DNA of 64,000 bases from Candidatus Dojkabacteria bacterium (GCA_050943415.1 JBMNPD010000001.1:4317-68316), one strand, 5' to 3'; positions 3,001 through 60,703 are shown, counted from the stretch's first letter. Notes: generated by a model not told the origin, from the letters alone. A program made the numbers and translations.

Positions 3001-6000
3001 AATGATGACATTGCTCCTACCCTTAAATTAGTTAAATCAGTAACTAATGACAACGGAGGTACATTAGGACCTAAAGATTGGACATTATCAGCTACAGGTC
3101 CTACCCCAATTTCAGGAGATGGAGGTGCTACAAGTGGTAGTAACTTCAAGGCAGGTACATACACATTAGGTGAGGTAGGAAAAACAGGAGTAGATGTATC
3201 AGGGTACGAGGCAGGTAAATGGAGTTGTACAAACAATGTTACAGTTGATGAAAACAATCAAATAACATTAGGATTAAATCAATCTACCGTATGTACAATT
3301 GTAAATAATGATATTGCTCCTAAACTAACAATAGTAAAGCATGTAGATAATGAAGGAAATGATGGTACAAAGAAAGCAGAAGATTTTAAGATAATGGTAG
3401 ATGGAGAAAAAGTATCAGAACCTAGTTTCCAAGGCTCAGAAGAAGGTGTAATAGTAACTTTGAATGCAGGTGAATATAAAGTAACTGAGGAAGAAGATAC
3501 AGAAAACTACACAGCTTCATATAGTAAAGATTGCTCTGGAACAATAAATGTTGGTGAAGAGAAAACATGTACAATTACCAATACAGGTATAGATCATGAA
3601 CCAACAATTGAAGTAACTAAGAATGCTGATAAGACATCAGTAAAAGAAACAGGAGAAGATGTAATCTTTACATTTACAGTAAAGAATACAAGTAAAGTAG
3701 ATACTGTAACAATTCTCTCTTTAGTTGATACAGTTTTTGGCACATTATCAGGTAATGATAATTGTAAAGTTGGAACAGAATTAGCACCTAATGCAACCTG
3801 TTCATTTACATTAACCAAGAAGATTAGTGGAGATTACTCTGGTCCAGACCACTACAACAAATTTACAGTTGAGGCAAAAGATGAGGAAGGAAATAAAACT
3901 GATGATAGTGATGACCAAACAATTACATTTACAGATGAAAAACCATCAGTTGAAGTACTAAAGACAGCAGGTGTTACTGAAATTCCAGAAACAGGTGGAG
4001 AAGTGGAATTCACATACAAAGTTACAAATACAGGATTAGAGAAAGTAACAATAACATCATTGGAAGATGACGTATTTGGAACCTTAACAGGAGATGATGA
4101 TTGTAAAGTTGGAATAGAGTTAGAAGCAGGAAAGAGTTGTGAATTCAAACAAACATTTACAATTGACCCTACTACACCAGGAGATCCAAATGCAGCAACA
4201 TCTCACAAGAATATCTTTACAGCAACTGTAGAAGATAATGAAGAGAATGAAGCAGAAGATAGTGATGAAGAAGAGATTAAACTAACACCAGTACCATCAT
4301 TGAAATTAGTAAAGAAAGTTGTACATAAATACAATTCAGACGAGACAATCACTGCAGCAGATTGGACACTATCAGCAAAAACAGAAGATGACGAAGGTAT
4401 CAGCTATGCAGGTGATACAGATAAGTTTGAATTTGTAAAAGCAGGAGAAGAATATTCACTCTCTGAAACAGGTGAATACATGAGTCAATTTGAACCAAGC
4501 GCTTGGAGTTGTACAGGAGGTGAATTAGTAGGTTCTACACTTAAACTTGCAGCGACAGATGATGTTGTATGTACTATAACAAATACAGCATTACCTGGAA
4601 CAATTAAGATATACAAAGATGTAGTATATGGTGATACAGACATATACTCATCAGACGAATTCGAAGTTAAGGTAGACAGTGATACTGAATCACAGAAGAT
4701 TACTGATACTGAGGAAGATCCTAAAGTAGCTGAATTCACAAATCTTGATGCAGGTGAATACAATCCTGAAGAAATCAATGTACCAAATGGATACAGAGCA
4801 TTGGGTTGTTATCCAAGAGAAGAAGATCAAGATTATACTGTAGGAAATGGAGAAACATTAGAATTTGTATGTCTAAATGAAGTAATTGAACCACTCCTAG
4901 AGATTGAAAAAGAGAATGATGCAGCAACAGCTAAGTACGCAGGTGACCAGGTTACATACACAATAACAGTAACAGCACCAGAAGATGAAGATAATGAGAG
5001 TAAATATCTTCTAAACAATGTTGAAGTATTTGATCTCGCACCAGCAGGATTTGACTACAACAGTGGTACATGGAGTGCAATTTCTTCAGTAAGAGGAGAT
5101 ATTACTGGAATTACGACAGTAGAACCTACATACAATGGTACAGATTATGCAAAATGGACACTAGGTAATATGGAAGAAGGAGAAATAGTAATCTTGAAAT
5201 ACACAACAACTATCTCCTTAACCCAAGATCCAGGTACATATCCAGATATTGCATGGGTAAAAGGAGTATCATTAGCAAACAGCAATGTCCTTGGAAATGT
5301 AAGTACAGGTGCAGATACACCATTCGTAGGAACTAAAGTACAAGTAATTGCTCCTGATGAAATCGAAGAAGGAGAAGTATTAGGTGCATCTACAATAGTT
5401 AGACTACCTAGCACTGGAGCAAGTACATATCTAACATTAGGAGGATTAATAACTATGCTCGTAGGTTTACTAATAGCTATGTTTGGTAGCAAAAAACAAA
5501 GAAAGAGTTCATTAAAACTTAGCTTACTAACAGCAGTTGCATCCCTACTCTTCCTACCATTCTATGTACATGCAGCAGAATATTTAGATGTAAAGATAGA
5601 ACAACCAAAAACACCTACTAACATCTCTAAATTTGAGATAGGCTTTGTAGCTATGTCTACAAGTCCTGAAGCTGTTAAAGTAGAATGTTTTGAGGAAGGT
5701 AAACCTACTCCATTCCAAACAGTAAATGCTTCAACAGGAAATTGCTTAGTAGATGTAAAAGCAAGTGGTACCTACAAATATTATGTTAAAGCTACAGTAG
5801 GTGGAGAAGAAAAAGATTCTGATACTGTGGAAGTAACTGTAAATCTTGAGAAGCCACAAGCTGTCCTAGATTACTCAAAAACAGGAAATACTCTTTCTTT
5901 CAAAACTGCAAATGATGGTATTACAAAACATGTCCAGATATTTAGATCAGAAAAAGTATCATTTACTGCAAACGCTTCAACATTAGTACATAGTATGACT

Positions 6001-6450
6001 GTTCTTCCAAATACCACATATACTTGGACAGATGGCTCAGCAGAATCAGGAAAAACATATTACTACGCTTTAAGAGCAGTAGATGCTTACGGTAATCTCT
6101 CCCCTATCATTTCAGATAACGAAGTTATTACTGTAGTAGAAAAAGCAGGAACAACAACTACTCAAACAGGACAGGTGGCAGGTGCTATCTCTATGACAAC
6201 ATCAGGAACAACGGCAAAGGATACAACAGGATTAGAAGATGCAGAGGTTAAGGGAGATACAGATACTACTGGCGAAGAGACAGAAAATACAGATGTTGAA
6301 AAGAGTGATGCAGAAACACAAGAATCAGAAGATACTGCAGAAGAAGAATCAAAGAAAGTATCAATATTCAAGAAATACTGGTACCTCTGGATAGCTGGAC
6401 TTCTTGTCCTAGTTGGTGGTATATATAAATATGTCAAAAGAGAAAGGTAA
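1..6450 (+). CDS. Giant repetitive cell-wall-anchored surface protein (adhesin-like). It is 5'-truncated by the window edge: the frame is open from nt 1. It carries about 11 Cna-B/SpaA-like ~95-aa Ig-fold repeats and DUF11-like repeats, an LPSTG sorting signal at nt 5404-5418, then a further ~320-aa module.
   Basis: Frame 1 has no stop from nt 1 to 6450. The translated repeat '..APTLKLVK.VNNDNGG..DWTL.A.G...C.ITN.D' recurs about 11 times. DUF11-like 'TKNADKTSV..GEDV.FTFTV.NT' repeats are present. LPSTG is followed by a hydrophobic stretch and a KKQRK tail. Confidence 0.85.
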   Translation, partial: VAKGENKECTITNTKYGSLTIVKDATPSSNQEFTFTTTGDGLSGFTLIDNSDTSNPSKEFKNLKAGTYSVAETVPSDWKLTSATCSDGSPVSAINLSVGENITCTFNNVQYGSIFGHKWVDADGLADTTNDRTPVSGWTIFIDANGNGVWDEGEEKTTTGTDGKYSFINLLPGTYKVVEQMETGWIVLVGDSKVVELSAGENEEVNFVNVKLGSITVKKNVDSNGDGDLDDDVDVIGSDQWNWTLNNVTVGKTGTTKNKLEPGTYTINETDGPAHYHFVSLTCTGAADNRITITGDTAKINLESGEDVVCTYRNARNLGKLIIEKEVINDNGGSKKATDFSFKIGSENPIQFTQNGDDVLKGRNEYTRYAGLSYTVTEPEADSDGYTTTYNNCTNIVVPHGGQAVCKITNNDNKPSLTLVKEVNNDNGGTLSKTDWTLTATGPTTISGDGGATSGDNFKAGTYTLSEIGKTGVDVSGYEAGKWSCTNNIVVNENNQITLGLNQSTVCKIVNDDKAPSLELIKEVNNKFGGNAKATDWTLTATGPTTISGDGGVTSGNDFKVGTYTLSESGNVTGYSASDWSCTNNIAVNENNQITLGLGQSTKCTITNSDIQPTLKLVKTVANNHGGDKKVADFNLYIGNTKVDSGVATGVNANTEYTVSEDQLPGYSASVWGGDCSAEGKITLLPGDNKTCTITNSDIAPTLKLVKSVTNDNGGKLEAKDWTLTAKAGTEEFSNLGDAGTVHTVKAGVGYVLSESTVAGYASEGWKCDKGTLDGNTITLGLAENATCTITNNDIAPKLTLNKIVLNKYGGNKVESDWTLYAKQGEVVALSGKGAEGDNDVVSGETFQAGSYTLSEKGVLGYDASDWSCTGTGSLKGNVITLGIGQEAICSITNTDRPAGLTVIKEVINDNGGKATADDFDIRLNKEKLEFKPWTGGVGQYTFTYASTPKVQSNTKYTLTEIDHPDYKEGEWSCKDNKTGNEITHPFTLVEGQSVTCTITNDDIAPTLKLVKSVTNDNGGTLGPKDWTLSATGPTPISGDGGATSGSNFKAGTYTLGEVGKTGVDVSGYEAGKWSCTNNVTVDENNQITLGLNQSTVCTIVNNDIAPKLTIVKHVDNEGNDGTKKAEDFKIMVDGEKVSEPSFQGSEEGVIVTLNAGEYKVTEEEDTENYTASYSKDCSGTINVGEEKTCTITNTGIDHEPTIEVTKNADKTSVKETGEDVIFTFTVKNTSKVDTVTILSLVDTVFGTLSGNDNCKVGTELAPNATCSFTLTKKISGDYSGPDHYNKFTVEAKDEEGNKTDDSDDQTITFTDEKPSVEVLKTAGVTEIPETGGEVEFTYKVTNTGLEKVTITSLEDDVFGTLTGDDDCKVGIELEAGKSCEFKQTFTIDPTTPGDPNAATSHKNIFTATVEDNEENEAEDSDEEEIKLTPVPSLKLVKKVVHKYNSDETITAADWTLSAKTEDDEGISYAGDTDKFEFVKAGEEYSLSETGEYMSQFEPSAWSCTGGELVGSTLKLAATDDVVCTITNTALPGTIKIYKDVVYGDTDIYSSDEFEVKVDSDTESQKITDTEEDPKVAEFTNLDAGEYNPEEINVPNGYRALGCYPREEDQDYTVGNGETLEFVCLNEVIEPLLEIEKENDAATAKYAGDQVTYTITVTAPEDEDNESKYLLNNVEVFDLAPAGFDYNSGTWSAISSVRGDITGITTVEPTYNGTDYAKWTLGNMEEGEIVILKYTTTISLTQDPGTYPDIAWVKGVSLANSNVLGNVSTGADTPFVGTKVQVIAPDEIEEGEVLGASTIVRLPSTGASTYLTLGGLITMLVGLLIAMFGSKKQRKSSLKLSLLTAVASLLFLPFYVHAAEYLDVKIEQPKTPTNISKFEIGFVAMSTSPEAVKVECFEEGKPTPFQTVNASTGNCLVDVKASGTYKYYVKATVGGEEKDSDTVEVTVNLEKPQAVLDYSKTGNTLSFKTANDGITKHVQIFRSEKVSFTANASTLVHSMTVLPNTTYTWTDGSAESGKTYYYALRAVDAYGNLSPIISDNEVITVVEKAGTTTTQTGQVAGAISMTTSGTTAKDTTGLEDAEVKGDTDTTGEETENTDVEKSDAETQESEDTAEEESKKVSIFKKYWYLWIAGLLVLVGGIYKYVKRER
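1206..1800. repeat. Two tandem ~290-bp intragenic repeats encoding near-identical Ig-like domains. A third copy lies at 2976-3290.
   Basis: Near-identical nucleotide strings (e.g. 'ggtaaatggagttgtacaaacaat' at ~1443 and ~3211). The spurious antisense ORFs 1206-1463, 1506-1775 and 2976-3257 translate to near-identical peptides. Confidence 0.8.
5479..6450 (+). other. In-frame distal module of the giant ORF. It has a cryptic signal-peptide-like segment (MFGSKKQRKSSLKLSLLTAVASLLFLPFYVHA|AE), Fn3-like domains, an acidic T/E/D-rich linker and a C-terminal TM anchor (YWYLWIAGLLVLVGGIYKYVKRER).
   Basis: The internal ATG at 5479 is in frame. A positively charged n-region is followed by an h-region and a VHA-A cleavage-like site. 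A 'GKTYYYALRAVDAYGNLS' Fn3-like signature is present. The ORF ends with a hydrophobic helix and a basic tail. Confidence 0.5.
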
Positions 6451-11423: not shown

Positions 11424-12452
11424 TTACAATATGATATTTACTTCAGATATCAATTCTACTCCATACTCTTTCAGTACAGAATCTTTCATCTTCTGAATAT
11501 ATTCATATATTTCTTTGCCAGAAGCCTTTTTATTTGTTACAACACATAGAGCATGTCTATCAAAAGTACCAACATTACCTATCCACTTCCCTTTCCACCC
11601 TAGTTCATCTAACAATCTTCCAGCAGGAATTCTAACTTTTTCTTTTTCCTCTACAGGATATGATTGTAATTCTGATATCCTTTTAGACAACTCGTTGTAT
11701 TTCTCTACAGAAACAATTGGATTTTCAAAGAAACTACCACAAGTTCCATACTCTTTTACAGAAGGTAATCGTTTCTTTCGTTGCATAATTATTGCTTTCA
11801 TAACTTCTTGTATGCTGTACGGTTCTTTTGCAAAGGAATCCAACTCTTCTTTTAATGAACCGTATCTCCCTGCTCTTTCAGTATATGAAAGTTCAAATTT
11901 CTTTGTATTCTTCTTTAGTTTAAAAATTGCTGAAACAACAATATATTTGTTTTTCCACTCATGTTTAAAATTACTACCTCTGTATCTATATCCACATTTT
12001 TTTGGATTGAATTTTGTTAATTTTTCTTTTGATATATCTATAGCTTCTATAGAATATAATGTATCTATTACAGTTTGACCGTATGCACCTATGTTTTGTG
12101 TTACTGCACTTCCTACACTTCCGGGGATCATAGCCATGTTTTCTACTCCGGCGTAATTTCTCTCTACACACCACTTAACAAAATCATCCCATATTTCTCC
12201 AGAATGTACTTTAACATATACGTTCTCTGAATCTTCTTTAACAACTTCTATTCCCTTGTAATTTGGTTTAATGATTAGACCATCGTAATTGTTTACAAAG
12301 AGGGTATTACTTCCTTCTCCTAGTATAAGAATCTTCTCATCTTTGTATTTTTGTAATATGGAAATTGTTTCTTCTACAGTATTAACTATTTCAAAAAGTT
12401 TTGATTTTGTATCGGTATGAAATGTGTTGTACTTTTTTAATGAATATTTCAT
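11424..12452 (-). CDS. murB: UDP-N-acetylenolpyruvoylglucosamine reductase MurB.
   Basis: FAD-binding 'ILGEGSNTLF' and 'MAMIPGSVGSAVTQNIGAYGQ' signature. Confidence 0.85.
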   Translation of the reverse strand: MKYSLKKYNTFHTDTKSKLFEIVNTVEETISILQKYKDEKILILGEGSNTLFVNNYDGLIIKPNYKGIEVVKEDSENVYVKVHSGEIWDDFVKWCVERNYAGVENMAMIPGSVGSAVTQNIGAYGQTVIDTLYSIEAIDISKEKLTKFNPKKCGYRYRGSNFKHEWKNKYIVVSAIFKLKKNTKKFELSYTERAGRYGSLKEELDSFAKEPYSIQEVMKAIIMQRKKRLPSVKEYGTCGSFFENPIVSVEKYNELSKRISELQSYPVEEKEKVRIPAGRLLDELGWKGKWIGNVGTFDRHALCVVTNKKASGKEIYEYIQKMKDSVLKEYGVELISEVNIIL

Positions 12453-26799: not shown

Positions 26800-28293
26800 C
26801 TACTGCAACTTCTCGAATTTGTTATCTGGTAACTGTCTGTAATATCCTTGTCCTTCTGGTCCATATGAACTCCAAGAGTTAACAGGAGTACTGTATATTT
26901 GACCTGTACTTGGTGAAGTTACAGTCTCGTACCCGTTCATTCCTTCTATCCATTTTTCACCAGTTTCTTGAGCTATAGATCTACCATAGGTTCTACTTTT
27001 AGAAGTCATTGAAGATTCTAAGCTCTCTATTGGTCCTTTAAATGGTAGTAATGTGTTCATCTTTGGAGTTTTACTGTCAATAAAGGCAAGACTGTCTCGC
27101 ATAGTGCGGAAAGAATCTACAGTACTTTCCCAATTCTCTGATGTTGTTATATATCCAACCAAGAAAGCAGATGCGTATTTAGTACCAACATCAAAATATG
27201 GGGGCTGATATACTCCTACAGTTGCTTCTCCTTGAATAGGTATGCCTTCCATACTGGCAGTAAAAGTAAACTCCTGCATACTATTTCCTAATATATCAGA
27301 AGGCAATACTGCTCCATCTGTTATTATTAGATTTTTTAATCCTTTCATTTCTGAAAGCATATTCTCTAACCAAGATTTAGGTGTATATTCTGTTTTCAAT
27401 TCAGTAGTGTATGCATAAGTAAACATTCCTCTGTTATCAGTCTTGACTAAATCAATACCATTTTCTTTCTCTTTATCAACTTTAAAATCAGATGATTTAT
27501 CTAACTTAAAGTACTTTCCTTCATATGTCTTAAAACCTTCAGGAAGTTGTTCTTTTTTTGGTTCTTGCTCTTTGCTTTCTACTTTATTTAGTTCATCTAC
27601 TATTTCTTTCTGTTTTGCTAACAAAATATCATCTGTAAGTACTTTTGTTCTTGCGAAACATCCACATATATCCTTTAAGATAGTTTCTCTCTCTTCAAAG
27701 ATCTCAGTTGGAGCCCAATATGCTTTGAATGTAACAAAATCTCCTGATTTAGAAGCAATCATTTTTCCCTTTATATTGTATTCACCAATCTTAGCGACTA
27801 TATCAGCATTAGTTTGATTCTCTAGCAGTTGAATATTCTGCATTTCAAACGTGCTATTTTCTTCTTCTTCAATTGTTTGTGTAAAGATTCTAGAAAATGC
27901 ATTTAAGAAATCTTCTTCTGTTAATTCTTGCTTTAGTTTTGCTGTGTACAAGAATACTGCTGTAGTATTTGTCTCATCTTCCATTATGGATACAGCTCCA
28001 TTATTAACTTCGTACAACCAACCATTTGGAACTCCAATACTAAAGGCATTCTCAGGATACTCTATTTTTGTTAAAGAACAGGTAGGATCATCATTTTCTA
28101 CAGTAGCAGCGTAGTATTCATCTCTTTTTAAATTTATTTCCTCTAGTTTACTACTAATGTTTTCAACAATATTTTTAAAAGAATCGGTTGGAATGAAAAC
28201 AAGTAAAAGTGCAATAGTGAGGATTAATATGGTTGAAATAATTAAAGATTTCTTGTGTTGTTCAAAGAAATCTTTGAGGGCAATTTTTTCCAT
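26800..28293 (-). CDS. Membrane-anchored extracytoplasmic hypothetical protein (497 aa).
   Basis: N-terminal TM helix 'LIISTILILTIALLLVFIP'. Long ORF with no known motifs. Confidence 0.55.
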   Translation of the reverse strand: MEKIALKDFFEQHKKSLIISTILILTIALLLVFIPTDSFKNIVENISSKLEEINLKRDEYYAATVENDDPTCSLTKIEYPENAFSIGVPNGWLYEVNNGAVSIMEDETNTTAVFLYTAKLKQELTEEDFLNAFSRIFTQTIEEEENSTFEMQNIQLLENQTNADIVAKIGEYNIKGKMIASKSGDFVTFKAYWAPTEIFEERETILKDICGCFARTKVLTDDILLAKQKEIVDELNKVESKEQEPKKEQLPEGFKTYEGKYFKLDKSSDFKVDKEKENGIDLVKTDNRGMFTYAYTTELKTEYTPKSWLENMLSEMKGLKNLIITDGAVLPSDILGNSMQEFTFTASMEGIPIQGEATVGVYQPPYFDVGTKYASAFLVGYITTSENWESTVDSFRTMRDSLAFIDSKTPKMNTLLPFKGPIESLESSMTSKSRTYGRSIAQETGEKWIEGMNGYETVTSPSTGQIYSTPVNSWSSYGPEGQGYYRQLPDNKFEKLQ

Positions 28294-28469: not shown

Positions 28470-28988
28470 TTAATCTACAGGAATTACTTTAACAAGGCGA
28501 CAATAATCAAATTCCCACAAGTCACGACATTGTGAAGTGGTGGTAAATTGACTGTTATCTGGTTTCAACGAACAGACTGGCTCATAATCACGAGTGCAAA
28601 CTAGTTTAACAGTATCGCCAGGTTTTAAGGCCATTACTTTGAAATCAGTTGTCTTGATGATTTCTACCTGGCCAAGAGGTATAAGGTCTATTGATGGCTC
28701 AAGATCAACTAGAATACCTCTGACTAAGCCTTTTCCATCTTGCCAGATGCTTCCAGATACGTTACCATATCCAATATGATTGAATCCTGAATATGTTCCT
28801 GACACAGATCCATGAATCTGAGAATAACTGGCAGGATCTTCTTCAAGTTTTAATGTTAATAGATACAATGTTTCGTCGAACTTTGTATCTATTTTAATGC
28901 CTTGATCAATCTCCTGTTGAGGTGCTTTACAAGCAGTTAATAGAAAAGACATAACAATGACAATGATAAACAGCATTTTTTTAAACAT
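28470..28988 (-). CDS. Putative lipoprotein (172 aa).
   Basis: Lipobox 'FLLTAC' at the end of a signal peptide. Confidence 0.6.
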   Translation of the reverse strand: MFKKMLFIIVIVMSFLLTACKAPQQEIDQGIKIDTKFDETLYLLTLKLEEDPASYSQIHGSVSGTYSGFNHIGYGNVSGSIWQDGKGLVRGILVDLEPSIDLIPLGQVEIIKTTDFKVMALKPGDTVKLVCTRDYEPVCSLKPDNSQFTTTSQCRDLWEFDYCRLVKVIPVD

Positions 28989-29248
28989 TTTATTTTTCCT
29001 TTCTTGTTTTTATGTATTTGAATGGATAGCTTTTAAGATATTAGGAAAATATCATAGAAGCTACCCACTCTTTTGAAAGGAGAGAGTCACATAATTCTCA
29101 TAGATTATTAAAGTGCAAGTTAGTAGTATTATATCAAGAATTCAAGAGTAAGTATACACTATAGGGTAATGGGTCGCCATATGATGGTATCACACACCTG
29201 AATTAATGGTATACTCTCTATATAATACAATCTAAGTGCAAGTAATTC

Positions 29249-30426: not shown

Positions 30427-30544
30427 TTCCAATTTAGAAAGGGTGTAAAAGAACATTTGTTAAACTAAAATTAGTGTATGTTGTATAAATTTAGCACTCC
30501 TAGATATTAAGGAATATATCTAATATAGTTTTGTGTCAAAAAGA

Positions 30545-30603
30545 AAAAAGTCTGAGGGAGGTTAGTGATGGTAATTAACCAGTCATAATAACCTCTCTCA
30601 AGC
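30545..30603 (-). terminator. Rho-independent terminator on the minus strand, ending the 32944->30623 operon.
   Basis: 12-bp stem (tgagggaggtta / taacctctctca, one G.U pair) followed on the minus strand by ttttttcttttt. Confidence 0.55.
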
Positions 30604-30622
30604 ATATCATACTTTTAATAAT

Positions 30623-31252
30623 CTATCTTAAACTTAGAGAAAGCAAGTGAAATTTTCTGTTGTCACATTGTTCTAAAATTTCCCATGCTTTTTTAACATG
30701 GTTAGAATCAAAATGAGGATTTCTTTTATCTAGTATCATTTTAATTTTTTCATAACCAGATAAACAAAATTCATATCTCTTAATATAGTCCAATGAACTA
30801 AGTAATTCCAACCATTTGAGTTTACTTGTCGGTAAATCATAGTTAAGAACTTGTAAGGTATCCCTCAACTCAATTACAAGATTTGTATTTTTTAAATCGG
30901 AATCTTTATTCAGAATTCCATTTTCAAACATAGTATCAATTTTGTTTAGTTTTCGTTCTAAACCATCTGAATGAGGTCCTTGCGTATTCCAAGTGAAGGT
31001 AAAATCAATATATTCACCTAGAAATACTCGAAGGAAGTAACACATTGTTTGTGACATAATATGTTTTTCAGATTTGTAAGGAAGATCTTGATAATTTTTC
31101 TTGTAAAATATGGCGAACAACTTTAAAAACTTTTGTTGTTCATAACTGAATTCTTTAATCATTTTCTCTCTCCTTTTTCTGGTATAAAATTGTACTCTCT
31201 GTACCAACCAATAGATTATTAAAGTGCGATGAAACATTATATCAATTAGCAC
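30623..31252 (-). CDS. Hypothetical protein. The true start is probably MIKEF at ~31162.
   Basis: ORF with no recognisable motifs. Last gene of a three-gene minus-strand operon. Confidence 0.45.
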   Translation of the reverse strand: MLIDIMFHRTLIIYWLVQRVQFYTRKRREKMIKEFSYEQQKFLKLFAIFYKKNYQDLPYKSEKHIMSQTMCYFLRVFLGEYIDFTFTWNTQGPHSDGLERKLNKIDTMFENGILNKDSDLKNTNLVIELRDTLQVLNYDLPTSKLKWLELLSSLDYIKRYEFCLSGYEKIKMILDKRNPHFDSNHVKKAWEILEQCDNRKFHLLSLSLR

Positions 31253-31277
31253 TAATTACGAAAAGATTATTATAGAT

Positions 31278-32483
31278 TTAATATCTTTTATTGATAGGTA
31301 AAACTTTATTAGTGTTTGCCGACCGAGCAAATCCCTCTATTGTTTCTTTAGTCATATTTAATAAGTTTGGAAGTTGCTCTCCTATTCTATCGACCCACCT
31401 ACCTTCTAAAAGATGTATATTTTTAACCTCACCTTCACTCTCTCCAATACTTATATACATGTTGTCTAAAATATCTCGGCCTTTCTTGGCTGAATTTATA
31501 ATGGTGTCCTGCATAGATTTACTAATCGAATATTTGCCAAAATCACCAATAAATATATTCGAGAAGTATTCTTTTAGATATGATGTTGTAATAGAGGTAG
31601 TAGGTAATAATGTATCATTTTGGGCTGTTTTACTTTTTAATACGACTTTAGGTTTAACTATTCTATCAAACCCTCCAGACAACTTAAGATAGTCTAGAGT
31701 ATTGTTATCAATATTTTTTGTTTCTAAATATTCTAAAACCTCATCTACTTTACTCTCGAATGAGAGTAGCTCTTCTAGATGATTATTACTTGTTCTTACT
31801 TCTGGATATTTAAAAATATTATTAATGTTTTGAAGAATATCACTAGGGATATAATTTTCTCCTACAATATCCTTTATTTCATCTTCTGGTAAAATTCTAT
31901 CTATATCTTTAGTTGTATACTCCTTCATAATCTCATAATCTAGATTGTAATCATATTTAAGAAGATACTTTATTTCATTGTACAAAACTATTCCTAACAT
32001 TGGTTCATCCTTAGAAAACTCTCTAAGCCATGTTCTAAGATTCCTTCCTATTCTATTCTGTTCTTTTGTGTTTTGTGTTCTCATTCTCTCCTTAATGGCA
32101 TTTGCCATTTCTCTAGCTATCTCTGTATGTATTAATTTTTCAGGTTCATACTGACCAGGAAGAGTGATGAATTCGTTAGTAGATAGAATAAAATCATATC
32201 TTAGTGATCTTATATCCTCTTCATGAATTCTCTCTTGTTTTTCTATTTTGTAGAATGAGGAGATAGGAAATTTCTCTTTAACAAGAAGTTGTAAAGCTAA
32301 AATACTGTCAAAAGAGTGTTTTTGGATTGAATGTCCATCATATGATATTCTCTCTGGGTTCTCTAAATATATCTGAAAATAATCTTGCATTTTTGATATT
32401 TCTCCTTTATTTTCAGATAGTCTAAAAGCGTATTCTAATTTGTTGGAACGATATATTGGTATTTCTAGTCCATTTTGTTGCAA
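31278..32483 (-). CDS. Hypothetical protein (401 aa), unknown function.
   Basis: Long ORF overlapping the upstream gene by 19 nt (translationally coupled). No assignable catalytic motif. Confidence 0.5.
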   Translation of the reverse strand: MQQNGLEIPIYRSNKLEYAFRLSENKGEISKMQDYFQIYLENPERISYDGHSIQKHSFDSILALQLLVKEKFPISSFYKIEKQERIHEEDIRSLRYDFILSTNEFITLPGQYEPEKLIHTEIAREMANAIKERMRTQNTKEQNRIGRNLRTWLREFSKDEPMLGIVLYNEIKYLLKYDYNLDYEIMKEYTTKDIDRILPEDEIKDIVGENYIPSDILQNINNIFKYPEVRTSNNHLEELLSFESKVDEVLEYLETKNIDNNTLDYLKLSGGFDRIVKPKVVLKSKTAQNDTLLPTTSITTSYLKEYFSNIFIGDFGKYSISKSMQDTIINSAKKGRDILDNMYISIGESEGEVKNIHLLEGRWVDRIGEQLPNLLNMTKETIEGFARSANTNKVLPINKRY

Positions 32484-32944
32484 GATAGGGGTACCATCTT
32501 CATATTGATATATTTTTTTCTTCCTTCTTTATACTGTAGATATTTGGCTTCCTCTTCAGTACTATTTATATGTGAGAGTTCTGGCTTAAGTATTCCATAT
32601 GACAAATCGCCTCTCCTTACAAATATCATTTTTCCACTAAATTTTATTCCTTTTGTATATCTGAGATATTCTTCTGTTACTACAATAGCATCATCAGTCT
32701 CATATATATGTGAATTTGTAAAAGCATTGCCAACTTCATCACTACTTATACCCTTAATTCTGTTAATATCTATATCCTCAGTTTGGTATGTTTGGGCTCC
32801 TATTACTAAGGGTAAAGGTAAATTATCAGTTATAGTTTTATTGTATGGATCTAATTCAGGAGAATTAGAATCAGGTGTTACTACCAATATGGGAGTAGTG
32901 TCAAGTTGTTCTGTTTTTACTGGTGAATCAAATTGGGTACCCAT
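32465..32944 (-). CDS. Hypothetical protein (159 aa), first gene of the operon.
   Basis: ORF overlapping the downstream gene. Confidence 0.45.
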   Translation of the reverse strand: MGTQFDSPVKTEQLDTTPILVVTPDSNSPELDPYNKTITDNLPLPLVIGAQTYQTEDIDINRIKGISSDEVGNAFTNSHIYETDDAIVVTEEYLRYTKGIKFSGKMIFVRRGDLSYGILKPELSHINSTEEEAKYLQYKEGRKKYINMKMVPLSCNKMD

Positions 32945-33003
32945 AACTTATATTAACAGAATTAAGTGGATAATTGTAGTAGGAAGATGTATAATACTAT
33001 GGG

Positions 33004-33375
33004 GTGAGATCTTTAAAAGTGAGGTTTAGTATGAAAAATCTTGGAATTTGGATAAAGGGAAATCAATATTTTGCTGTTCAGGATCAAAACGAAACAGCAT
33101 TTATTAATTTAACTCCAAACCCAATTATTTTGTTAGGAATGGATATTCCTGGCAAGTTATTTGGAGATATAATAATCCCAACATCTGGGCATATAGCATA
33201 TATCTTAGATAAAGTAATTGTCGGACTTCCCATAAAAAGGGAGGAAACCTTTTTAATTGTAGATTATTCAGTATTTCTTCTCTCACAAAGAGAAGATTTA
33301 TGCATCTCAATACGAGGTGGTTTTGATGAAGACAAGATTGTTATGGTGCCAATTCGACCACCTATTTATTTATAG
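33004..33375 (+). CDS. Hypothetical protein (123 aa).
   Basis: ORF divergent from the 32944 operon. Confidence 0.4.
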   Translation: MRSLKVRFSMKNLGIWIKGNQYFAVQDQNETAFINLTPNPIILLGMDIPGKLFGDIIIPTSGHIAYILDKVIVGLPIKREETFLIVDYSVFLLSQREDLCISIRGGFDEDKIVMVPIRPPIYL

Positions 33376-33479
33376 TCATAACTCAACCACATTGGTAGGT
33401 ATCTTAATTTTTAACAAGAAGATACCTACCTTTCTTTCTCTGGTGGTAGAGGCTAAAAATATATGGTAAGCTTATTTTT

Positions 33480-34193
33480 ATGAGTATATTTGACTTTATA
33501 TTTGGTAATCGTATTAGTACTACCTCTTTTAATCAATTACGAAGTAAAATTGTAAAACTTAGAAAGTCTAATATATATCCATTTGTTGAAAATCTTCCTC
33601 AAGCGATATCATTTCCATATGATTTCTGGAAGGACATTATCAAAATATTTAAAAGTACAGACAGTGATGGTAGAGAGAGGGCATTCTCAATATTTTGGGC
33701 TGATGGAGAGGTACTTTTTACTAAAGTAAAAACAGGTTCAGACAGAATGGTTAAGAGTGGAGGTTCTGTTCAGATTAAATATTCTCAGCATCCTACTAAG
33801 AGAGACTATGCTAGAAAGGAGTTATATATAGATGGAAAGTTAGAGAAAAAGAGAGATGTATATTTTAAAAATGTACCTAAGAGTTTGGAAGTACAATATC
33901 TCTTTAATATACATACACATCCTAAATATATTAGAGAAGATGGTACAAATAACTATCATTTTTTCTCTGCACAGGATATTAAATCATTGATATCTTCTAA
34001 GGCCATTATGACAGGATTAATTACCGATGTCGTTTGGATATTAATTAGAACAAGTAAAACTCCTGACAATGTAGATACTTTAGTAGATTCTCAAGTAACA
34101 CCTGAGTATCTTGAAGAGGTTCTTCATATTGGTTTATACAAGGCTAAGTTTAACGAAAAAGCGTTTAGGTATAGATATGTAAAGGATATATAA
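33480..34193 (+). CDS. Hypothetical protein with a JAB/MPN (JAMM)-like metalloprotease motif.
   Basis: 'NIHTHP' (H145, H147) followed by 'SAQD' (S163, D166) and an upstream Glu (GRERAF). The HxH-to-SxxD spacing is longer than canonical. Confidence 0.45.
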   Translation: MSIFDFIFGNRISTTSFNQLRSKIVKLRKSNIYPFVENLPQAISFPYDFWKDIIKIFKSTDSDGRERAFSIFWADGEVLFTKVKTGSDRMVKSGGSVQIKYSQHPTKRDYARKELYIDGKLEKKRDVYFKNVPKSLEVQYLFNIHTHPKYIREDGTNNYHFFSAQDIKSLISSKAIMTGLITDVVWILIRTSKTPDNVDTLVDSQVTPEYLEEVLHIGLYKAKFNEKAFRYRYVKDI

Positions 34194-34427
34194 CTGTTAA
34201 TTTTTCTTTTTACTAGACAAATCTAGTAAAAATAGAAAGCTACTCTATTATTACATAAAACTATTTAAAATTTAGGATAATCTAGATGGAGTTGGTTAGT
34301 AGATATAATTATGAACTTGGAATTATCTGTTAATATTAAATGAATCCTATTAAAAAGAAAAAGCACCTACGGTTCGACTATCACTCAAGCGAGTAGATAT
34401 TGTCTTACCATCAACGGTGCTTTCTTC

Positions 34428-34733
34428 CTAGTTCTGTTGTTTAATTGCTTTATTAAAAAAAGCTATAGCTTTGTTTCCTTCGTCTCCGAGTTTAAGGTTT
34501 TCAAAAAATTTTGGAATAGACTCGTATATAAGGTCTTTCGTCATAAGTGGATGTTGATCGGAAAAAACATCTTGAAATGCAAGTAAGGTCTCTAATACCA
34601 ATCCTTCTGGTAAGAGTTCTTGATCAGCAATCTTTGCTATCCTTGGGAAAAACTTCTCAAGCATATAATTCGATATGTTTTTCCAAGTTTGCATAATAGC
34701 CGTCTTAATTTGATCTTCTGTTAATTTTATCAT
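34428..34733 (-). CDS. Hypothetical small protein (101 aa).
   Basis: ORF with a downstream hairpin (aaagcacc...ggtgcttt) plus a T-tract on the minus strand at ~34362-34425. Confidence 0.45.
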   Translation of the reverse strand: MIKLTEDQIKTAIMQTWKNISNYMLEKFFPRIAKIADQELLPEGLVLETLLAFQDVFSDQHPLMTKDLIYESIPKFFENLKLGDEGNKAIAFFNKAIKQQN

Positions 34734-34810
34734 CTCTTCTCTCCTTTTTGAAAAGAACTAGGGTTGTTTTATAAACATCTCATTATACCAAAAAACAGGG
34801 GAATTTACTA

Positions 34811-34887
34811 TGGGGTGGATAATGGGAGTCGAACCCACAACCCCTGGTGCCACAAACCAGTGCTCTAACCATTGAGCTATATCCACC
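34811..34887 (-). tRNA. tRNA-His (anticodon GTG) with encoded G-1, C73 discriminator and 3' CCA.
   Basis: Manual cloverleaf fold. Acceptor gtggata/tatccac with G-1:C73, D-arm gctc/gagc, anticodon stem ctggt/accag with loop ttGTGgc, T-loop ttcgact. Confidence 0.85.
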
Positions 34888-34973: not shown

Positions 34974-35354
34974 GTGGAAACAAAATACATTGAAGGTTTA
35001 GGGTATTGCCATGTCGTTATAGAGGATAATTTCTTCTATGTCAAAATATCAGTTGTAAATTTGACTACTAGCGTTCTGTATATGGATTTTCCTGATAAAG
35101 ATCTATGTGGTTTCTATGAACATAGTGGATGGGTAGCCTTCGTTAGAGGTGGTCAATGTTACTGCAAGCATCTGGTAACAGGAGAAATAGTTCCATTTCC
35201 TCAGTCACAAAAAGCAGTTCTGTTTTTTGTAGACAAAGAGGTATATGATTACCTTACGAAAACAGACTGGGGAAAAGAATCTGGTTTTTACAACACTTTA
35301 AGATCGATGGACCAAGGCATCGATGCTGTAGTAGTGACTCGCTACAGACAATAA
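34974..35354 (+). CDS. Hypothetical protein (126 aa).
   Basis: ORF preceded by 'aaaggagga'. Confidence 0.45.
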   Translation: METKYIEGLGYCHVVIEDNFFYVKISVVNLTTSVLYMDFPDKDLCGFYEHSGWVAFVRGGQCYCKHLVTGEIVPFPQSQKAVLFFVDKEVYDYLTKTDWGKESGFYNTLRSMDQGIDAVVVTRYRQ

Positions 35355-35498: not shown

Positions 35499-35735
35499 AT
35501 GGAATCAATAGAAACATATACAGAAGAAGAGAATTCAGAAAACAACTTTGCTAGATTTTTTGATAAAAATGGGAACCCTGTTCCAAAAAGCCATGTATAC
35601 TGTAAAATAGATGGAACACCATATCAACTTGTTGATGATGAAGATGGTCAACTCAAAATGACAAAAGAGAGACTAATCGAAGTTAAAAGATTTCGTTCTA
35701 ATGAGGAAAATCCTATTTCTTCTTCCTCTGATTAA
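35499..35735 (+). CDS. Hypothetical acidic small protein (78 aa).
   Basis: ORF only. Confidence 0.35.
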   Translation: MESIETYTEEENSENNFARFFDKNGNPVPKSHVYCKIDGTPYQLVDDEDGQLKMTKERLIEVKRFRSNEENPISSSSD

Positions 35736-36393
35736 ACATATTTACATAGTAAAGTAGATTCAATATAGAAGACAACAAACCTGCTAAATATGTAAACGCA
35801 GCAGCAGTTAGTACACTCTTAGCACCATCTCTCTTCTCTTTTGTTATCAAATTATATTTCTTAATAAACTCCATACCTCTCCTACTAGCATCTAATTCTA
35901 CAGGTAAAGTAACTAAACAAAATATTACACTAGTAGAAAATAATACTAACCCTATCTCAGAAAGCCTAAATATTGATAAAGCTAAACCAAGAAAGAATAA
36001 TATATACCCTATCTGTGTACTAATATTAGTTACAGGAACCATAAACTGTCTAATTCTGTATACAAAAGTAGAAGAAAACTTCTGTTGTACATGACCAAAC
36101 TCATGAGCAACAATAGCAATATCTGCAACACTCCTAGATTCTCTGTTTCTTTGGGATACTCTAACAACATCATTAACAGGATCAAAATGATCACCCAATG
36201 GATTTTGATCTATAGTAATATCAACAGGAAAATTCTCTCCATCACATATAATATTAGCAGCCTCTTCACCTGTAATATTCTTTCCCGAATCTTCTGAAGA
36301 GTATCTGTAAAACATATATTTAACATAAAGCTGCGAGACAATTGTTAACAAAAGACCCGGAATTGCAAAATACCAATACATTGAATCTATCAT
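35713..36393 (-). CDS. Membrane zinc metallopeptidase (HExxH).
   Basis: 'IVAHEFGHV' zinc-binding motif flanked by TM helices. Confidence 0.7.
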   Translation of the reverse strand: MIDSMYWYFAIPGLLLTIVSQLYVKYMFYRYSSEDSGKNITGEEAANIICDGENFPVDITIDQNPLGDHFDPVNDVVRVSQRNRESRSVADIAIVAHEFGHVQQKFSSTFVYRIRQFMVPVTNISTQIGYILFFLGLALSIFRLSEIGLVLFSTSVIFCLVTLPVELDASRRGMEFIKKYNLITKEKRDGAKSVLTAAAFTYLAGLLSSILNLLYYVNMFNQRKKK

Positions 36394-36452: not shown

Positions 36453-36905
36453 ATGGAACTCAAGAAAACAGATAAATATATGTTAGAAGCTATTAATGAA
36501 GCTTACAAAGGTATTAAGCAAGGTCACGGAGGTCCTTTTGGAGCAGTTCTTGTTCAGAAGGGTAAAATAGTTGCCAAAGCACATAATACTGTACTACGAG
36601 ATAATGATGCTACATGTCATGCAGAAATGCATGTTATTAGGAACGGTTCTAAAAAGCTAAAGAGGTTTGATCTCTCTGACTGTGAACTGTATACAACAGG
36701 TAAGCCTTGTCCTATGTGTAAGAGTGCTATACAGTGGGCTAAGATAAAGAATGTATACTACGGTTGTGATTACAACGATGCTAAAGCAATAGGATTTGTA
36801 GAGAAAGCAGGGAATAGTAAATCATACAAAGAGAAAAAGATTTGTTCTAAAGAGTGTAAAGAGTTGTATTCTGAGTATAAGAAATTGAAGTTACCTAGAT
36901 ACTAG
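36453..36905 (+). CDS. CMP/dCMP-type (CDA fold) nucleoside or tRNA deaminase.
   Basis: 'CHAEMHVI' and 'PCPMC' zinc-binding motifs. Confidence 0.8.
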   Translation: MELKKTDKYMLEAINEAYKGIKQGHGGPFGAVLVQKGKIVAKAHNTVLRDNDATCHAEMHVIRNGSKKLKRFDLSDCELYTTGKPCPMCKSAIQWAKIKNVYYGCDYNDAKAIGFVEKAGNSKSYKEKKICSKECKELYSEYKKLKLPRY

Positions 36906-39014
36906 CTACTTCTTCACATACAGCTTTATATCAACAACTACTGCCCTATCCTCGGTTAACATGACAGGATTAATGTCCATAGAGATTATTTCAGGATAGC
37001 TCACTAACATTTTCTGTACTTTTTCAAGAAGATCTATCAATTTTTCTCTTGCTAATCTAGGCTTACCTCTATATCCATCAATAATCATTGATACTTTTGT
37101 TTCTGAAAGAATTCTATCTATATTTTCTCTACTCTCAGGAACTAAAATATGCTTAATATCTTTATATACCTCTGTAAATATTCCTCCTTTACCTACAGCC
37201 ATGAGGTGACCAAAACCAAGCCCTTCTTCTTCATATATATCTGATGAACCTTCCCTATTAGCACCTAAAAATATCTCTAACTTACCTTCAATCATTTCTT
37301 GAATTAAGATATTTGGAGCCGATTTACCAGTTGTTTTTGCAACTGTTTCTTTCAATTCTTCAAATTTTTCTTCAAATTCAGTTATGGTTCTAATATCTAA
37401 AAACAATCCTTTGTAGTCAGTTTTATGTGCCAAATCTTCAGCTGTTGCCTTAATTGCTACTGGGAATATTAATGAAGCAAAATCTCTTCCTTGCTCTAAG
37501 CTACTAGTTACAAGTTGCTTAGGATAGTCTATCTTAAATTCGTCCATGATATTAATTGCCAAATCATCAGGTAGTATCGCAATCTCATCATCTACACAGT
37601 ACTCTTGTACTTCTTTTCTGTATTTACCTTTCTTAAATAGTTTCTCTGATGATATTGAAATAACTCTTTCTTTTGATGAATCAAATACCATTAGCTTAGA
37701 TAGTAGATGCATACATTCCTGAATATCGTTAAAATTAGGAACCTTTGCATTTTCTAATATTCTAACTCCAGACTTAATATTTTTGCCTCCCAAGAAACAT
37801 GTAAATACAGGTTTAGAGGTTTGTTTACATATATTTGTGATGACTTCTGCAGTTCCTTCAATATCTGTTACTAATTGAGGTGTTAAGATTACTACAACAG
37901 CATCTACATTAATATCTTCTAGTACAGTATTTATGGCGTAAGCATATCTATCACTTTTAGCATCACCTAAAACATCTATTGGATTTGATAAATTGGATTC
38001 TTCTGGTAGTTCTTTCATTAATTTCTGTTTTGTCTTCTCTCCAAAATCAATGATATTGATATTCTCTTTCTCTGCTTGGTCAACTGCTATGATACCTGGT
38101 CCACCTGCATTTGATACAATTGCTACATTGTTTCCTTTAGGTAATGTGTCTGATTCTACTAATTCCATTAGTTTGAATAATTCTTCTGAGTTTTCAGCAT
38201 GAATGAGGTTTCCTTTTTTAATCGCAGCTATTGTAGTATCGTAAGAAGAAGCAAGAGAGCCTGTATGAGAGGTTATTGCCTCTCTAGATTTTTCTGAACT
38301 ACCAGGAGCTATTATGAGGATTGGTTTCTTTGATTTCTGAACAATTGTGAGGAACTCTTTCCCATCAGTAAATTCTTCTAAATATACAGCAATGGCTTTT
38401 ACAGTAGGATCATTTATGAGCGATGGAAGTAGTTCATTTTCATTTATATCTGCTTTGTTACCTAAAGAAATTATATGTGAGAAGCCTAATTCTTTTTCAC
38501 AAGCCATATCAAGTATTGCTGCACAGAATGCTCCAGATTGAGAAATAAAAGCTATGTTGCCATCTCCTGGGTTTTCTCTTGCAAATGATATATTAGTCTT
38601 ACTTCTGTTGTTAATATATCCTAAACAGTTAGGCCCTATCAATCTTATTCCTGCATCTTTTAATTTTTGAGTTATACGTTTTTCTAGTTCTTTTCCCTCT
38701 CCTCCTGTTTCCTTAAATCCAGCTGAAATTATGACAACTGATTGTACTTTTTTCTCTATACATTGATCTATTACTGTTTCAACAAATTGTCTTGGAATTG
38801 CAATACATACTAAGTCAATATCTTCTTCTACTGCTAATATATCAGGATATGCTTTTCTTCCTTGTAGCTCCTCGTATTTAGGATTAATTGGGTATATCTT
38901 ACCATTGTAACCATCAGTTATGAGGTTTTTGAGTAGTACAGCACCGATTTTTTCCAAATCAGCAGATGCACCTACTATGGCGATAGATTTAGGCGAAAGT
39001 ATTGGGAGTGTCAT
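36906..39014 (-). CDS. acd: Acetyl-CoA synthetase (ADP-forming), fused alpha/beta (NDP-forming acyl-CoA synthetase).
   Basis: N-terminal CoA-binding 'SIAIVGAS', succinyl-CoA-synthetase-like flavodoxin domain and C-terminal ATP-grasp. 702 aa. Confidence 0.85.
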   Translation of the reverse strand: MTLPILSPKSIAIVGASADLEKIGAVLLKNLITDGYNGKIYPINPKYEELQGRKAYPDILAVEEDIDLVCIAIPRQFVETVIDQCIEKKVQSVVIISAGFKETGGEGKELEKRITQKLKDAGIRLIGPNCLGYINNRSKTNISFARENPGDGNIAFISQSGAFCAAILDMACEKELGFSHIISLGNKADINENELLPSLINDPTVKAIAVYLEEFTDGKEFLTIVQKSKKPILIIAPGSSEKSREAITSHTGSLASSYDTTIAAIKKGNLIHAENSEELFKLMELVESDTLPKGNNVAIVSNAGGPGIIAVDQAEKENINIIDFGEKTKQKLMKELPEESNLSNPIDVLGDAKSDRYAYAINTVLEDINVDAVVVILTPQLVTDIEGTAEVITNICKQTSKPVFTCFLGGKNIKSGVRILENAKVPNFNDIQECMHLLSKLMVFDSSKERVISISSEKLFKKGKYRKEVQEYCVDDEIAILPDDLAINIMDEFKIDYPKQLVTSSLEQGRDFASLIFPVAIKATAEDLAHKTDYKGLFLDIRTITEFEEKFEELKETVAKTTGKSAPNILIQEMIEGKLEIFLGANREGSSDIYEEEGLGFGHLMAVGKGGIFTEVYKDIKHILVPESRENIDRILSETKVSMIIDGYRGKPRLAREKLIDLLEKVQKMLVSYPEIISMDINPVMLTEDRAVVVDIKLYVKK

Positions 39015-60151: not shown

Positions 60152-60703
60152 ATGACTTGGTTATATATTTTACTAGGTATTGTCGTTCTTTTACTTGCCA
60201 CATTTATTGGCTTGTACAACAAATTGGCAAGACAGAAAGTTACAGTTGAGGAAGCAGCTTCCGATATTGAAACTTTCTTAAAACAGAGGTATGACATGAT
60301 TCCTAATCTTGTAGAAATTGTTAAAGGTTATGCAAAACATGAGAGAGAAACATTTGCAGAAGTTACAAACCTGAGAACAAAAGCTATGTCATCTACTTCA
60401 CTTGAGGAGAAGATGGAAATAGATCAAAAGTTAGATAAGGGGATTGCTAAAATTTTTGCTATTGCTGAAAATTATCCAGAATTAAAGTCTAATGAGAATT
60501 TTGTTCAATTACAGAAAACATTAGAAACATTAGAAGGTGATATTCAAAAATCAAGACGATACTACAACGGTACTGCAAGAGATTTCAATGCTATGATTGT
60601 AGTTTTCCCAAACAATATCATTGCGGGTATGCTTAACTTTAAAAAAGTAGAATTCTTTGAAGCAACAGAAGAAGAGAAGAAGAATGTAGAGATTAAATTC
60701 TAA
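60152..60703 (+). CDS. lemA: LemA family protein.
   Basis: N-terminal TM helix and conserved 'AENYPELK' region. Confidence 0.8.
   Translation: MTWLYILLGIVVLLLATFIGLYNKLARQKVTVEEAASDIETFLKQRYDMIPNLVEIVKGYAKHERETFAEVTNLRTKAMSSTSLEEKMEIDQKLDKGIAKIFAIAENYPELKSNENFVQLQKTLETLEGDIQKSRRYYNGTARDFNAMIVVFPNNIIAGMLNFKKVEFFEATEEEKKNVEIKF

Follow-up and report, generated by a model that had tools for sequence, protein, structure and literature searches.

The genes between a terminator-like hairpin and tRNA-His

The window analysed here comprises 64,000 nucleotides (nt) of the metagenome-assembled genome of a Candidatus Dojkabacteria bacterium, a member of the WS6 lineage within the candidate phyla radiation (CPR), with a GC content of ~32%. 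The region studied, positions 30,545-34,887, extends from a terminator-like hairpin to a tRNA-His gene and had been described in an original prediction, made from the sequence alone, as six genes in two operons that constitute an accessory or defence island at the tRNA gene, with an undescribed system around a JAB/MPN-like protein. The open reading frames (ORFs) are present where they had been placed, yet two of them, of 159 and 401 amino acids (aa), are the halves of one 555-aa gene, and the cluster consists of five genes in probably four transcription units. The region is likely, in our estimation, a rearranged but normal stretch of chromosome that holds four unrelated units, namely the gene for a 237-aa JAB protein, a divergent pair of genes for a 555-aa and a 114-aa protein, the gene for a 179-aa protein resembling the C-terminal domain of DarG, and tRNA-His with an adjoining 101-aa gene.

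Searches with the six ORFs against Pfam, PHROGs, NCBIfam and PADLOC gave only weak matches to DarG and PDC-M20A (the latter in a single-sequence PADLOC search at E 0.005), and NCBI contains entries identical to the 401-aa and the 237-aa product, annotated as hypothetical proteins of Candidatus Dojkabacteria. The statement that no function can be assigned to these ORFs thus holds for part of them, but not for the 237-aa protein with its JAMM fold nor for the 179-aa homologue of the DarG C-terminal domain. What is new at the locus is divergent members of known superfamilies (JAMM; DarG C-terminal domain/Panacea) together with the unassigned 555/114 pair.

The distribution of the five genes over probably four units follows from separate start signals and from hairpins between the genes. 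Just past the stop codon of the 179-aa gene, the last minus-strand gene, a terminator-like hairpin with a U tract (30536-30599, minus strand) is found between convergent genes, in agreement with the terminator anticipated at 30545-30603; its stem at ~30552-30599 is followed by UUUUUUCUUUUU, with a dG of about -20 to -22 kcal/mol, the value for the computed fold being -21.9 kcal/mol with a z of -3.25. Equally, a 12-bp perfect, terminator-like hairpin (33394-33430, plus strand; dG -28.3 kcal/mol, z -3.1) followed by the U-rich UUUCUUUCU is situated between the 114-aa gene and the JAB gene. An overlapping three-gene operon on the minus strand had been proposed but is not supported, as the 179-aa gene possesses its own Shine-Dalgarno sequence and an extended -10 element, TGATATAAT, within the 115-nt spacer that separates it from the 555-aa gene, and the overlap of the 159-aa and 401-aa ORFs is artefactual. 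The intergenic region between the convergent JAB and 101-aa genes (34194-34430) contains two strong hairpins with no Rfam match, of which the one at 34207-34232 is AU-rich with U and A tracts on either side and the second, at ~34358-34425, is longer and branched; judged from these sequence features, both are likely bidirectional terminators.

The 237-aa JAMM/MPN+-like protein and its neighbourhood

The 237-aa protein is encoded at 33480-34193 on the plus strand, and the H-x-H...S-x-x-D arrangement that had drawn attention to it is present as FNIHTHP-x14-SAQD together with an upstream Glu (E66, H145-x-H147, S163-x-x-D166). More than 100 homologous protein clusters with 38-90% identity were found, all from Dojkabacteria/WS6 where the source is named, and in an alignment of 27 homologues covering the same range of identity the residues E66, R67, H145, T146, H147, P148, S163 and D166 are invariant. 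An AlphaFold2 model (pLDDT 87.4, pTM 0.82) has the alpha/beta fold of the MPN (JAB1/MPN/Mov34) domain, in which H-x-H ends the strand 138-146 and S-x-x-D opens the helix 164-172, while a small beta-hairpin (149-151, 157-159) accounts for the long spacer of 15 residues between His and Ser. The best structural matches are the active JAMMs PfJAMM1, CSN5 and AfJAMM. With the predicted structure and the invariant catalytic motif the JAB/MPN call is upheld, and the model presents the 237-aa protein as a divergent JAMM/MPN+ zinc metalloprotease-like protein with a conserved Glu/His-x-His/Ser-x-x-Asp site, which is probably an active cytoplasmic zinc (iso)peptidase.

Alignment to JAMM sequence profiles succeeds only in part. 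The Pfam profiles JAB, Prok-JAB and RadC do not match any of the 27 members at E up to 10, with DUF4329 (E 0.028) as the only weak match, whereas the PADLOC JAB model is matched by three of the 27 (best E 5e-4). Furthermore, the 237-aa protein has no match in PHROGs or NCBIfam nor, by single sequence or by profile, in the PDB, and the family has no viral relatives in IMG/VR.

In comparison with stand-alone prokaryotic JAMMs (PfJAMM1, 5ld9; AfJAMM, 1r5x; the Rpn11 homologue of Caldiarchaeum), to which it is ~13% identical, this Pfam-evading protein has 15 instead of ~7 residues from the second His to the Ser, the difference being the modelled beta-hairpin insert, and carries an extra N-terminal helical extension of ~60 residues and a C-terminal extension of ~45 residues; no gene for a ubiquitin-like protein (Ubl), E1 or E2 is nearby, and the conserved neighbours are LemA and DUF2207. 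Unlike CBASS Cap3 (9ild) and BilC of the Bil system (8tyy), the gene is not accompanied by CD-NTase, E1/E2 (Cap2), Ubl or BilA/B/D genes in the inspected neighbourhoods, and it occurs lineage-wide in a core neighbourhood instead of sporadically. A phage tail-assembly JAB protein of the lambda K-like type differs equally, since the 237-aa protein is without PHROG match or IMG/VR relative and its neighbours are cellular housekeeping genes. As the Ubl, E1, E2 and CD-NTase context is missing, a Cap3-like, BilC-like or SAMP-type role is not supported.

The chromosomal context of the family was assessed in a census in which one genome per species was scanned, yielding 65 loci with a homologue of the 237-aa protein (34-76% identity) in genomes of which almost all bear Dojkabacteria/WS6 titles or generic CPR labels; synteny at these loci, numbered with the prefix L along with other relatives, was analysed by tblastn with the window proteins in 5 kb around the JAB gene. 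Where identity reaches at least 63% (27-28 loci), the genes are arranged as LemA, DUF2207, JAB, followed by Zn_peptidase_2 (opposite strand), dCMP deaminase and acetyl-CoA synthetase (ACS, opposite strand). With Pfam annotation, JAB is located ~22-25 nt 3' of DUF2207 on the same strand in L009 and L011, and the same order is seen in L006, a related Dojkabacteria genome (GCA_050950165.1). Distant homologues of JAB adjoin GlmS, DNA_alkylation, Fe-hydrogenase-like, CTP synthase, ACS and POR genes. The Pfam-annotated neighbours in L006 and L009-L011 are LemA, DUF2207, Zn_peptidase_2, GlmS, DNA_alkylation, CTP synthase and ACS, and ThiF, E2, Ubl and CD-NTase are absent from these neighbourhoods as well as among the window neighbours. 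Homologues of the 555-aa, 114-aa, 179-aa and 101-aa proteins and of a 126-aa ORF on the other side of tRNA-His were detected by tblastn within 5 kb of JAB in none of the 65 loci.

The window retains the downstream half of this array, with the genes for the zinc peptidase (35713-36393), dCMP deaminase (36453-36905), ACS (36906-39014) and POR, while the usual upstream genes, LemA (60152-60703) and DUF2207 (60719-62425), both on the plus strand and identified by Pfam, are found 26 kb away. Together these positions point to a rearrangement breakpoint just upstream of the JAB gene, and, from the genomes compared, the split of LemA-DUF2207 from JAB appears to be specific to this genome. At its present position LemA-DUF2207 precedes a FemAB-like gene that is encoded on the other strand. 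Next to the zinc peptidase gene is a 78-aa ORF (35499-35735) of which a 37%-identical homologue is located between JAB and the zinc peptidase in L057 (1230-1400); relative to this locus the block of 101-aa gene, tRNA-His and 126-aa ORF in the window represents an extra insertion or a differential loss.

As JAB is the third gene of LemA-DUF2207-JAB in most genomes of the clade, a functional link with LemA/DUF2207 can tentatively be proposed, although we regard it as somewhat less probable than its absence. The 237-aa protein might then act on or with the LemA-DUF2207 membrane proteins, and in this genome would do so in trans after the split of the array.

The 555/114 pair and the DarG C-terminal-like protein

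A look-up with the 237-aa protein led to five independent metagenome contigs, among them L001, which over 6824 nt differs from the window by 0 mismatches and 1 gap, and L002 with 98.4% identity. In both contigs the 159-aa and 401-aa ORFs are a single intact 555-aa gene, corresponding to 31278-32944 on the minus strand of the window, where it is read as two ORFs through a homopolymer that is 1 nt shorter. The sole difference that splits the gene is T7 in the window versus T8 in the two other assemblies, that is, an A7 instead of an A8 tract on the minus strand at 32513-32519, which is the apparent frameshift site. The reading frame through the tract (…EGRKKIYQYEDGTP…) is kept in the alignment of every homologue of 519-587 aa. 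Because of the T7/T8 difference and the conservation of the frame across the site, the 19-nt overlap between the two ORFs is considered an artefact, and the split most probably stems from faulty assembly or from a frameshift that arose very recently.

Homologues of the 555-aa protein are few, have 32-71% identity and are all annotated as hypothetical; invariant motifs in their alignment include DGH-x3-KH-x2-D, H-x5-E-x-AN, LYNEIKY and F-ESK-x-D. No match to the protein was found in Pfam, PADLOC or NCBIfam, and a search for viral relatives of the family found none. A match to SPT2 in the profile and sequence search of the PDB was judged spurious, a reading of the invariant E-S-K-x-D motif as PD-(D/E)xK was rejected as the alignment shows no conserved upstream Asp, and a relationship to the HD-domain proteins that are the usual partners of the 179-aa family (see below) received an hhalign probability of 0.4%.

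The 114-aa protein is encoded divergently from the 555-aa gene at 33031-33375 on the plus strand, within a mechanical ORF of 123 aa that starts at 33004. The divergent arrangement recurs in L006, where ~9 kb from JAB a 555 homologue with 71% identity has beside it, in divergent orientation, the gene for a 106-aa counterpart of the 114-aa protein (41% identity), and in L083 (38% identity for the 114 homologue), so that the two genes are a conserved pair, for which no fold relatives are detectable. On the other hand, the 114-aa partner was not detected beside the distant 519-aa group of 555 homologues, where contexts vary. In L006 the pair adjoins the same polysaccharide deacetylase/DivIC-like pair as well as two paralogues of the window's 497-aa gene. 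In this 497-aa protein (26800-28293, minus strand) the N-terminal part includes a hydrophobic segment, and Pfam detects no domain; as its two tandem paralogues (56% identity) are directly 3' of the 555 homologue (L006:11723-14759), it can be assigned to the same reshuffled neighbourhood.

The positions at which the window and L002 differ are strongly clustered, with 23 in 33000-33249 and 0 in both the JAB gene and the 179-aa gene; 32250-33000 was flagged as well. Within the 114-aa gene the differences are non-synonymous in 12 codons and synonymous in 3, and L003 and L005 share the L002-type allele, a pattern pointing to recombination, or to diversifying selection, in the first two-thirds of the protein from its N-terminus. 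The 126-aa ORF (34974-35354, plus strand) displays weak similarity to the 114 family (BLASTP E 0.001 to a 108-aa member encoded in L013 at 11710-12036). A second small ORF is also present beside the 114 homologue in L083 (1586-1903), where it is paralogue-like, and in L006 (8897-9223), where it aligns poorly with 16% identity. By their sequences, these proteins may be paralogues that make up a small family characterised by F-I-N-L-T…SG…A…IV-x-LP.

The remaining minus-strand gene, at 30623-31162, codes for the stand-alone homologue of the toxin-binding, Panacea-like C-terminal part of DarG. The mechanical ORF extends to 31252, giving 209 aa, and other callers give 204 aa. Homology to relatives starts at about residue 25-30 of the longer ORF and a strong Shine-Dalgarno sequence, AAGGAGAGAG, is situated just 5' of the ATG at 31162 (MIKEF); on these grounds the most likely start is this ATG and the probable product has 179 aa. 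The same Shine-Dalgarno/ATG context precedes two further minus-strand genes. In the sequence it appears as a repeated 25-nt motif (28980-29004, 31154-31178 and 34725-34749), which is the reverse complement of AAAAAGGAGAGAG…ATGAT; this repeat family, D1, is a common start context of three minus-strand genes and no att repeat, and it helps start-codon calling in this genome.

A word-indexed search returned the 179-aa protein alone, while a full phmmer scan identified 45 stand-alone relatives of ~160-200 aa that share a Q-K-h-x-Y-h…W…G-P-Y-S core. The PADLOC DarG model aligns with the 179-aa protein at E 5e-7 over profile positions 173-242 of 329, and the NCBIfam model antitoxin_DarG is matched in its non-macrodomain part by 22 of 31 family members (best E 6e-10), all below the 250-bit equivalog cut-off. 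The family profile also matches M. tuberculosis DarG in the PDB (7yk3_B, E 0.0055), where the single 209-aa sequence has no match. Pfam DUF4065 (PF13274) is matched by none of the 31 members at E up to 1. A Macro domain was not found in the protein, whether taken as 179 or 204 aa, with coverage of the DarG profile confined to ~153-250, and a search for phage or plasmid relatives found none.

DUF4065 (Panacea) proteins have been described as homologous to the DarG inhibitor domain (PMC13621843, 2026), and Panacea antitoxins pair with many toxins (PMC8832971). The 179-aa family aligns with the non-macrodomain part of DarG including the conserved core, and resembles PanA in being small and stand-alone with members that adjoin different large proteins. 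Unlike DarG, the 179-aa protein has neither a macrodomain nor a DarT (DUF4433) neighbour, the upstream 555-aa protein being without recognizable family; unlike PanA it has no DUF4065 match, so that the link to Panacea is indirect, through the DarG C-terminal domain. A conserved partner such as toxin-antitoxin pairs have is not apparent for the 179-aa gene in this genome, where the 555-aa gene adjoins it, while its relatives are usually accompanied by a ~600-aa HD-domain protein with a weak PADLOC dGTPase match. The closest relatives, P0122 (47% identity), P0124 and P0126, are directly upstream of such a protein of ~600-630 aa in L012, L016 and L017, whereas P0123 from Dojkabacteria (41%) is solo in L013 between ACS and dCMP deaminase genes. 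The module of a ~185-aa DarG C-terminal domain-like protein and the HD-domain protein occupies L012:151-2520, L016:721-3176 and L017:1992-4488, and these two genes are possibly an uncatalogued toxin-antitoxin or defence pair. At the locus itself, going by homology, the 179-aa protein is best read as the product of an orphan antitoxin-like gene with a toxin-binding module of the DarG C-terminal domain/Panacea type.

Juxtaposed units versus a single system

The tRNA-His(GTG) gene (34811-34886, minus strand) was confirmed, and an Rfam scan gave tRNA only. Directly downstream is the gene for a conserved hypothetical 101-aa protein (34428-34733, minus strand), of which a 66%-identical homologue occupies the same place after tRNA-His in L013. 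Furthermore, tRNA-His is 3-6 kb from JAB in L009, L010, L034, L052 and L055 and is also in the neighbourhood of JAB and the 555/114 pair in L006. The tRNA gene and the 101-aa gene would thus be ancestral neighbours, not an insertion target, and a block that is variably present or absent at tRNA-His, as expected of an island, is not apparent in related genomes. Like tRNA-linked islands the region adjoins a tRNA gene and is enriched in hypothetical proteins; unlike them it is without integrase, without a direct repeat of the tRNA 3' end and without clear compositional break, and its genes are shared with relatives in the same neighbourhood. That integrase and att duplication are missing had already been remarked and was confirmed, with no integrase, transposase or recombinase domain in ORFs from 22 to 39 kb and no repeat family involving 34811-34886. 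Searches revealed neither viral relatives of the 555 and JAB families nor phage or plasmid relatives of the 179-aa protein.

To regard the stretch from the 30.5-kb terminator to tRNA-His as one accessory or defence island with an undescribed JAB-centred system, of the Ubl-conjugation, CBASS or Bil type, would accord with the adjacent tRNA gene, the majority of genes without family, the real JAB fold and the weak PADLOC PDC-M20A match (E 0.005), but we deem this reading very improbable. JAB is conserved in 65 species genomes in a housekeeping neighbourhood in which tblastn detected none of the other genes within 5 kb, E1, E2, Ubl and CD-NTase Pfam families do not occur in L006 and L009-L011, integrase and att repeat are missing, and terminator-like hairpins and separate start signals intervene between genes whose homologues, whether 555/114, 179-aa, JAB or tRNA-His/101-aa, occur separately in relatives. 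More plausible, though still improbable, is that the 555-aa and 179-aa genes are a toxin-antitoxin pair of a new PanAT/DarTG-like kind in which, as in darT-darG, the toxin gene leads, and that the frameshift in the window inactivates the toxin. The two genes adjoin each other on one strand at a distance of 25-115 nt, and L001 and L002 contain both of them undisrupted; the 179-aa protein is a homologue of the DarT-binding, inhibitory domain, Panacea-type domains combine with toxins of many unrelated kinds, and the 555-aa gene is disrupted in this assembly. However, such a neighbour is missing beside the 555 members of L006, L008 and L083-L086, and relatives of the 179-aa protein are solo or pair with HD-domain proteins that show no relationship to the 555 family. 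The 179-aa gene carries a Shine-Dalgarno sequence and an extended -10 element of its own, the 555-aa gene has another conserved partner in the 114-aa gene, and a frameshift in an A8 run is typical of assembly error. Only marginally better placed is the possibility that the 237-aa protein is not a peptidase but an inactive MPN scaffold or a RadC-like or nucleic-acid-directed JAB domain, as the invariance of the five MPN+ signature residues in 27 sequences down to 38% identity is unexpected for a scaffold and the closest structures are those of active JAMMs.

Local shuffling within an ancestral chromosomal neighbourhood explains the region, which would be ordinary Dojkabacteria chromosome where a local rearrangement has juxtaposed four unrelated lineage-specific units that do not constitute a single system. 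Several observations weigh against this reading. The GC content at the cluster is slightly low (0.26-0.31 versus about 0.32), though within the range of the rest of the window, other parts of which are equally low, and there is no clear compositional break. The synteny census relied on tblastn with window proteins only, so that very divergent partners could escape. Equally, in this lineage the 179-aa gene directly follows the 555-aa gene on the same strand, an order known from darT-darG that would fit a lineage-specific, if improbable, toxin-antitoxin pairing. Finally, the LemA-DUF2207 linkage is confined to the clade with at least 63% identity and is absent in distant homologues and in this genome, which also renders the functional link to LemA/DUF2207 weak.

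Elsewhere in the window, a 2108-aa protein (124-6450, plus strand) contains at least 12 SpaA-type prealbumin-fold repeats and an LPXTG-type anchor motif and, from this domain composition, appears to be an adhesin or pilin-like protein of the cell surface, which is very large given the small size of a CPR genome.

The main effect of the analysis is the removal of a false lead, as there is no new defence island and one presumed gene is an assembly or frameshift artefact; the useful remainder consists of candidates for improved annotation and not of major surprises. The stand-alone DarG C-terminal-like family extends the theme of promiscuous antitoxin domains to HD-domain partners and to CPR bacteria. 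A bolder view, which we rate as rather unlikely, would see the 237-aa protein as founding an unrecognised JAMM family that works with the widespread LemA-DUF2207 membrane-protein pair and might process or de-conjugate one of the two or a substrate presented by them or, independently, would see the DarG C-terminal domain-like and ~600-aa HD-domain proteins as a toxin-antitoxin or defence pair that is not yet catalogued. In any case the reduced genomes of Dojkabacteria contain, throughout the lineage, a JAMM-like protease that Pfam does not see, with a conserved link to the two uncharacterised families LemA and DUF2207, and, if true, the JAMM-LemA-DUF2207 connection would provide the first biochemical handle on LemA/DUF2207.

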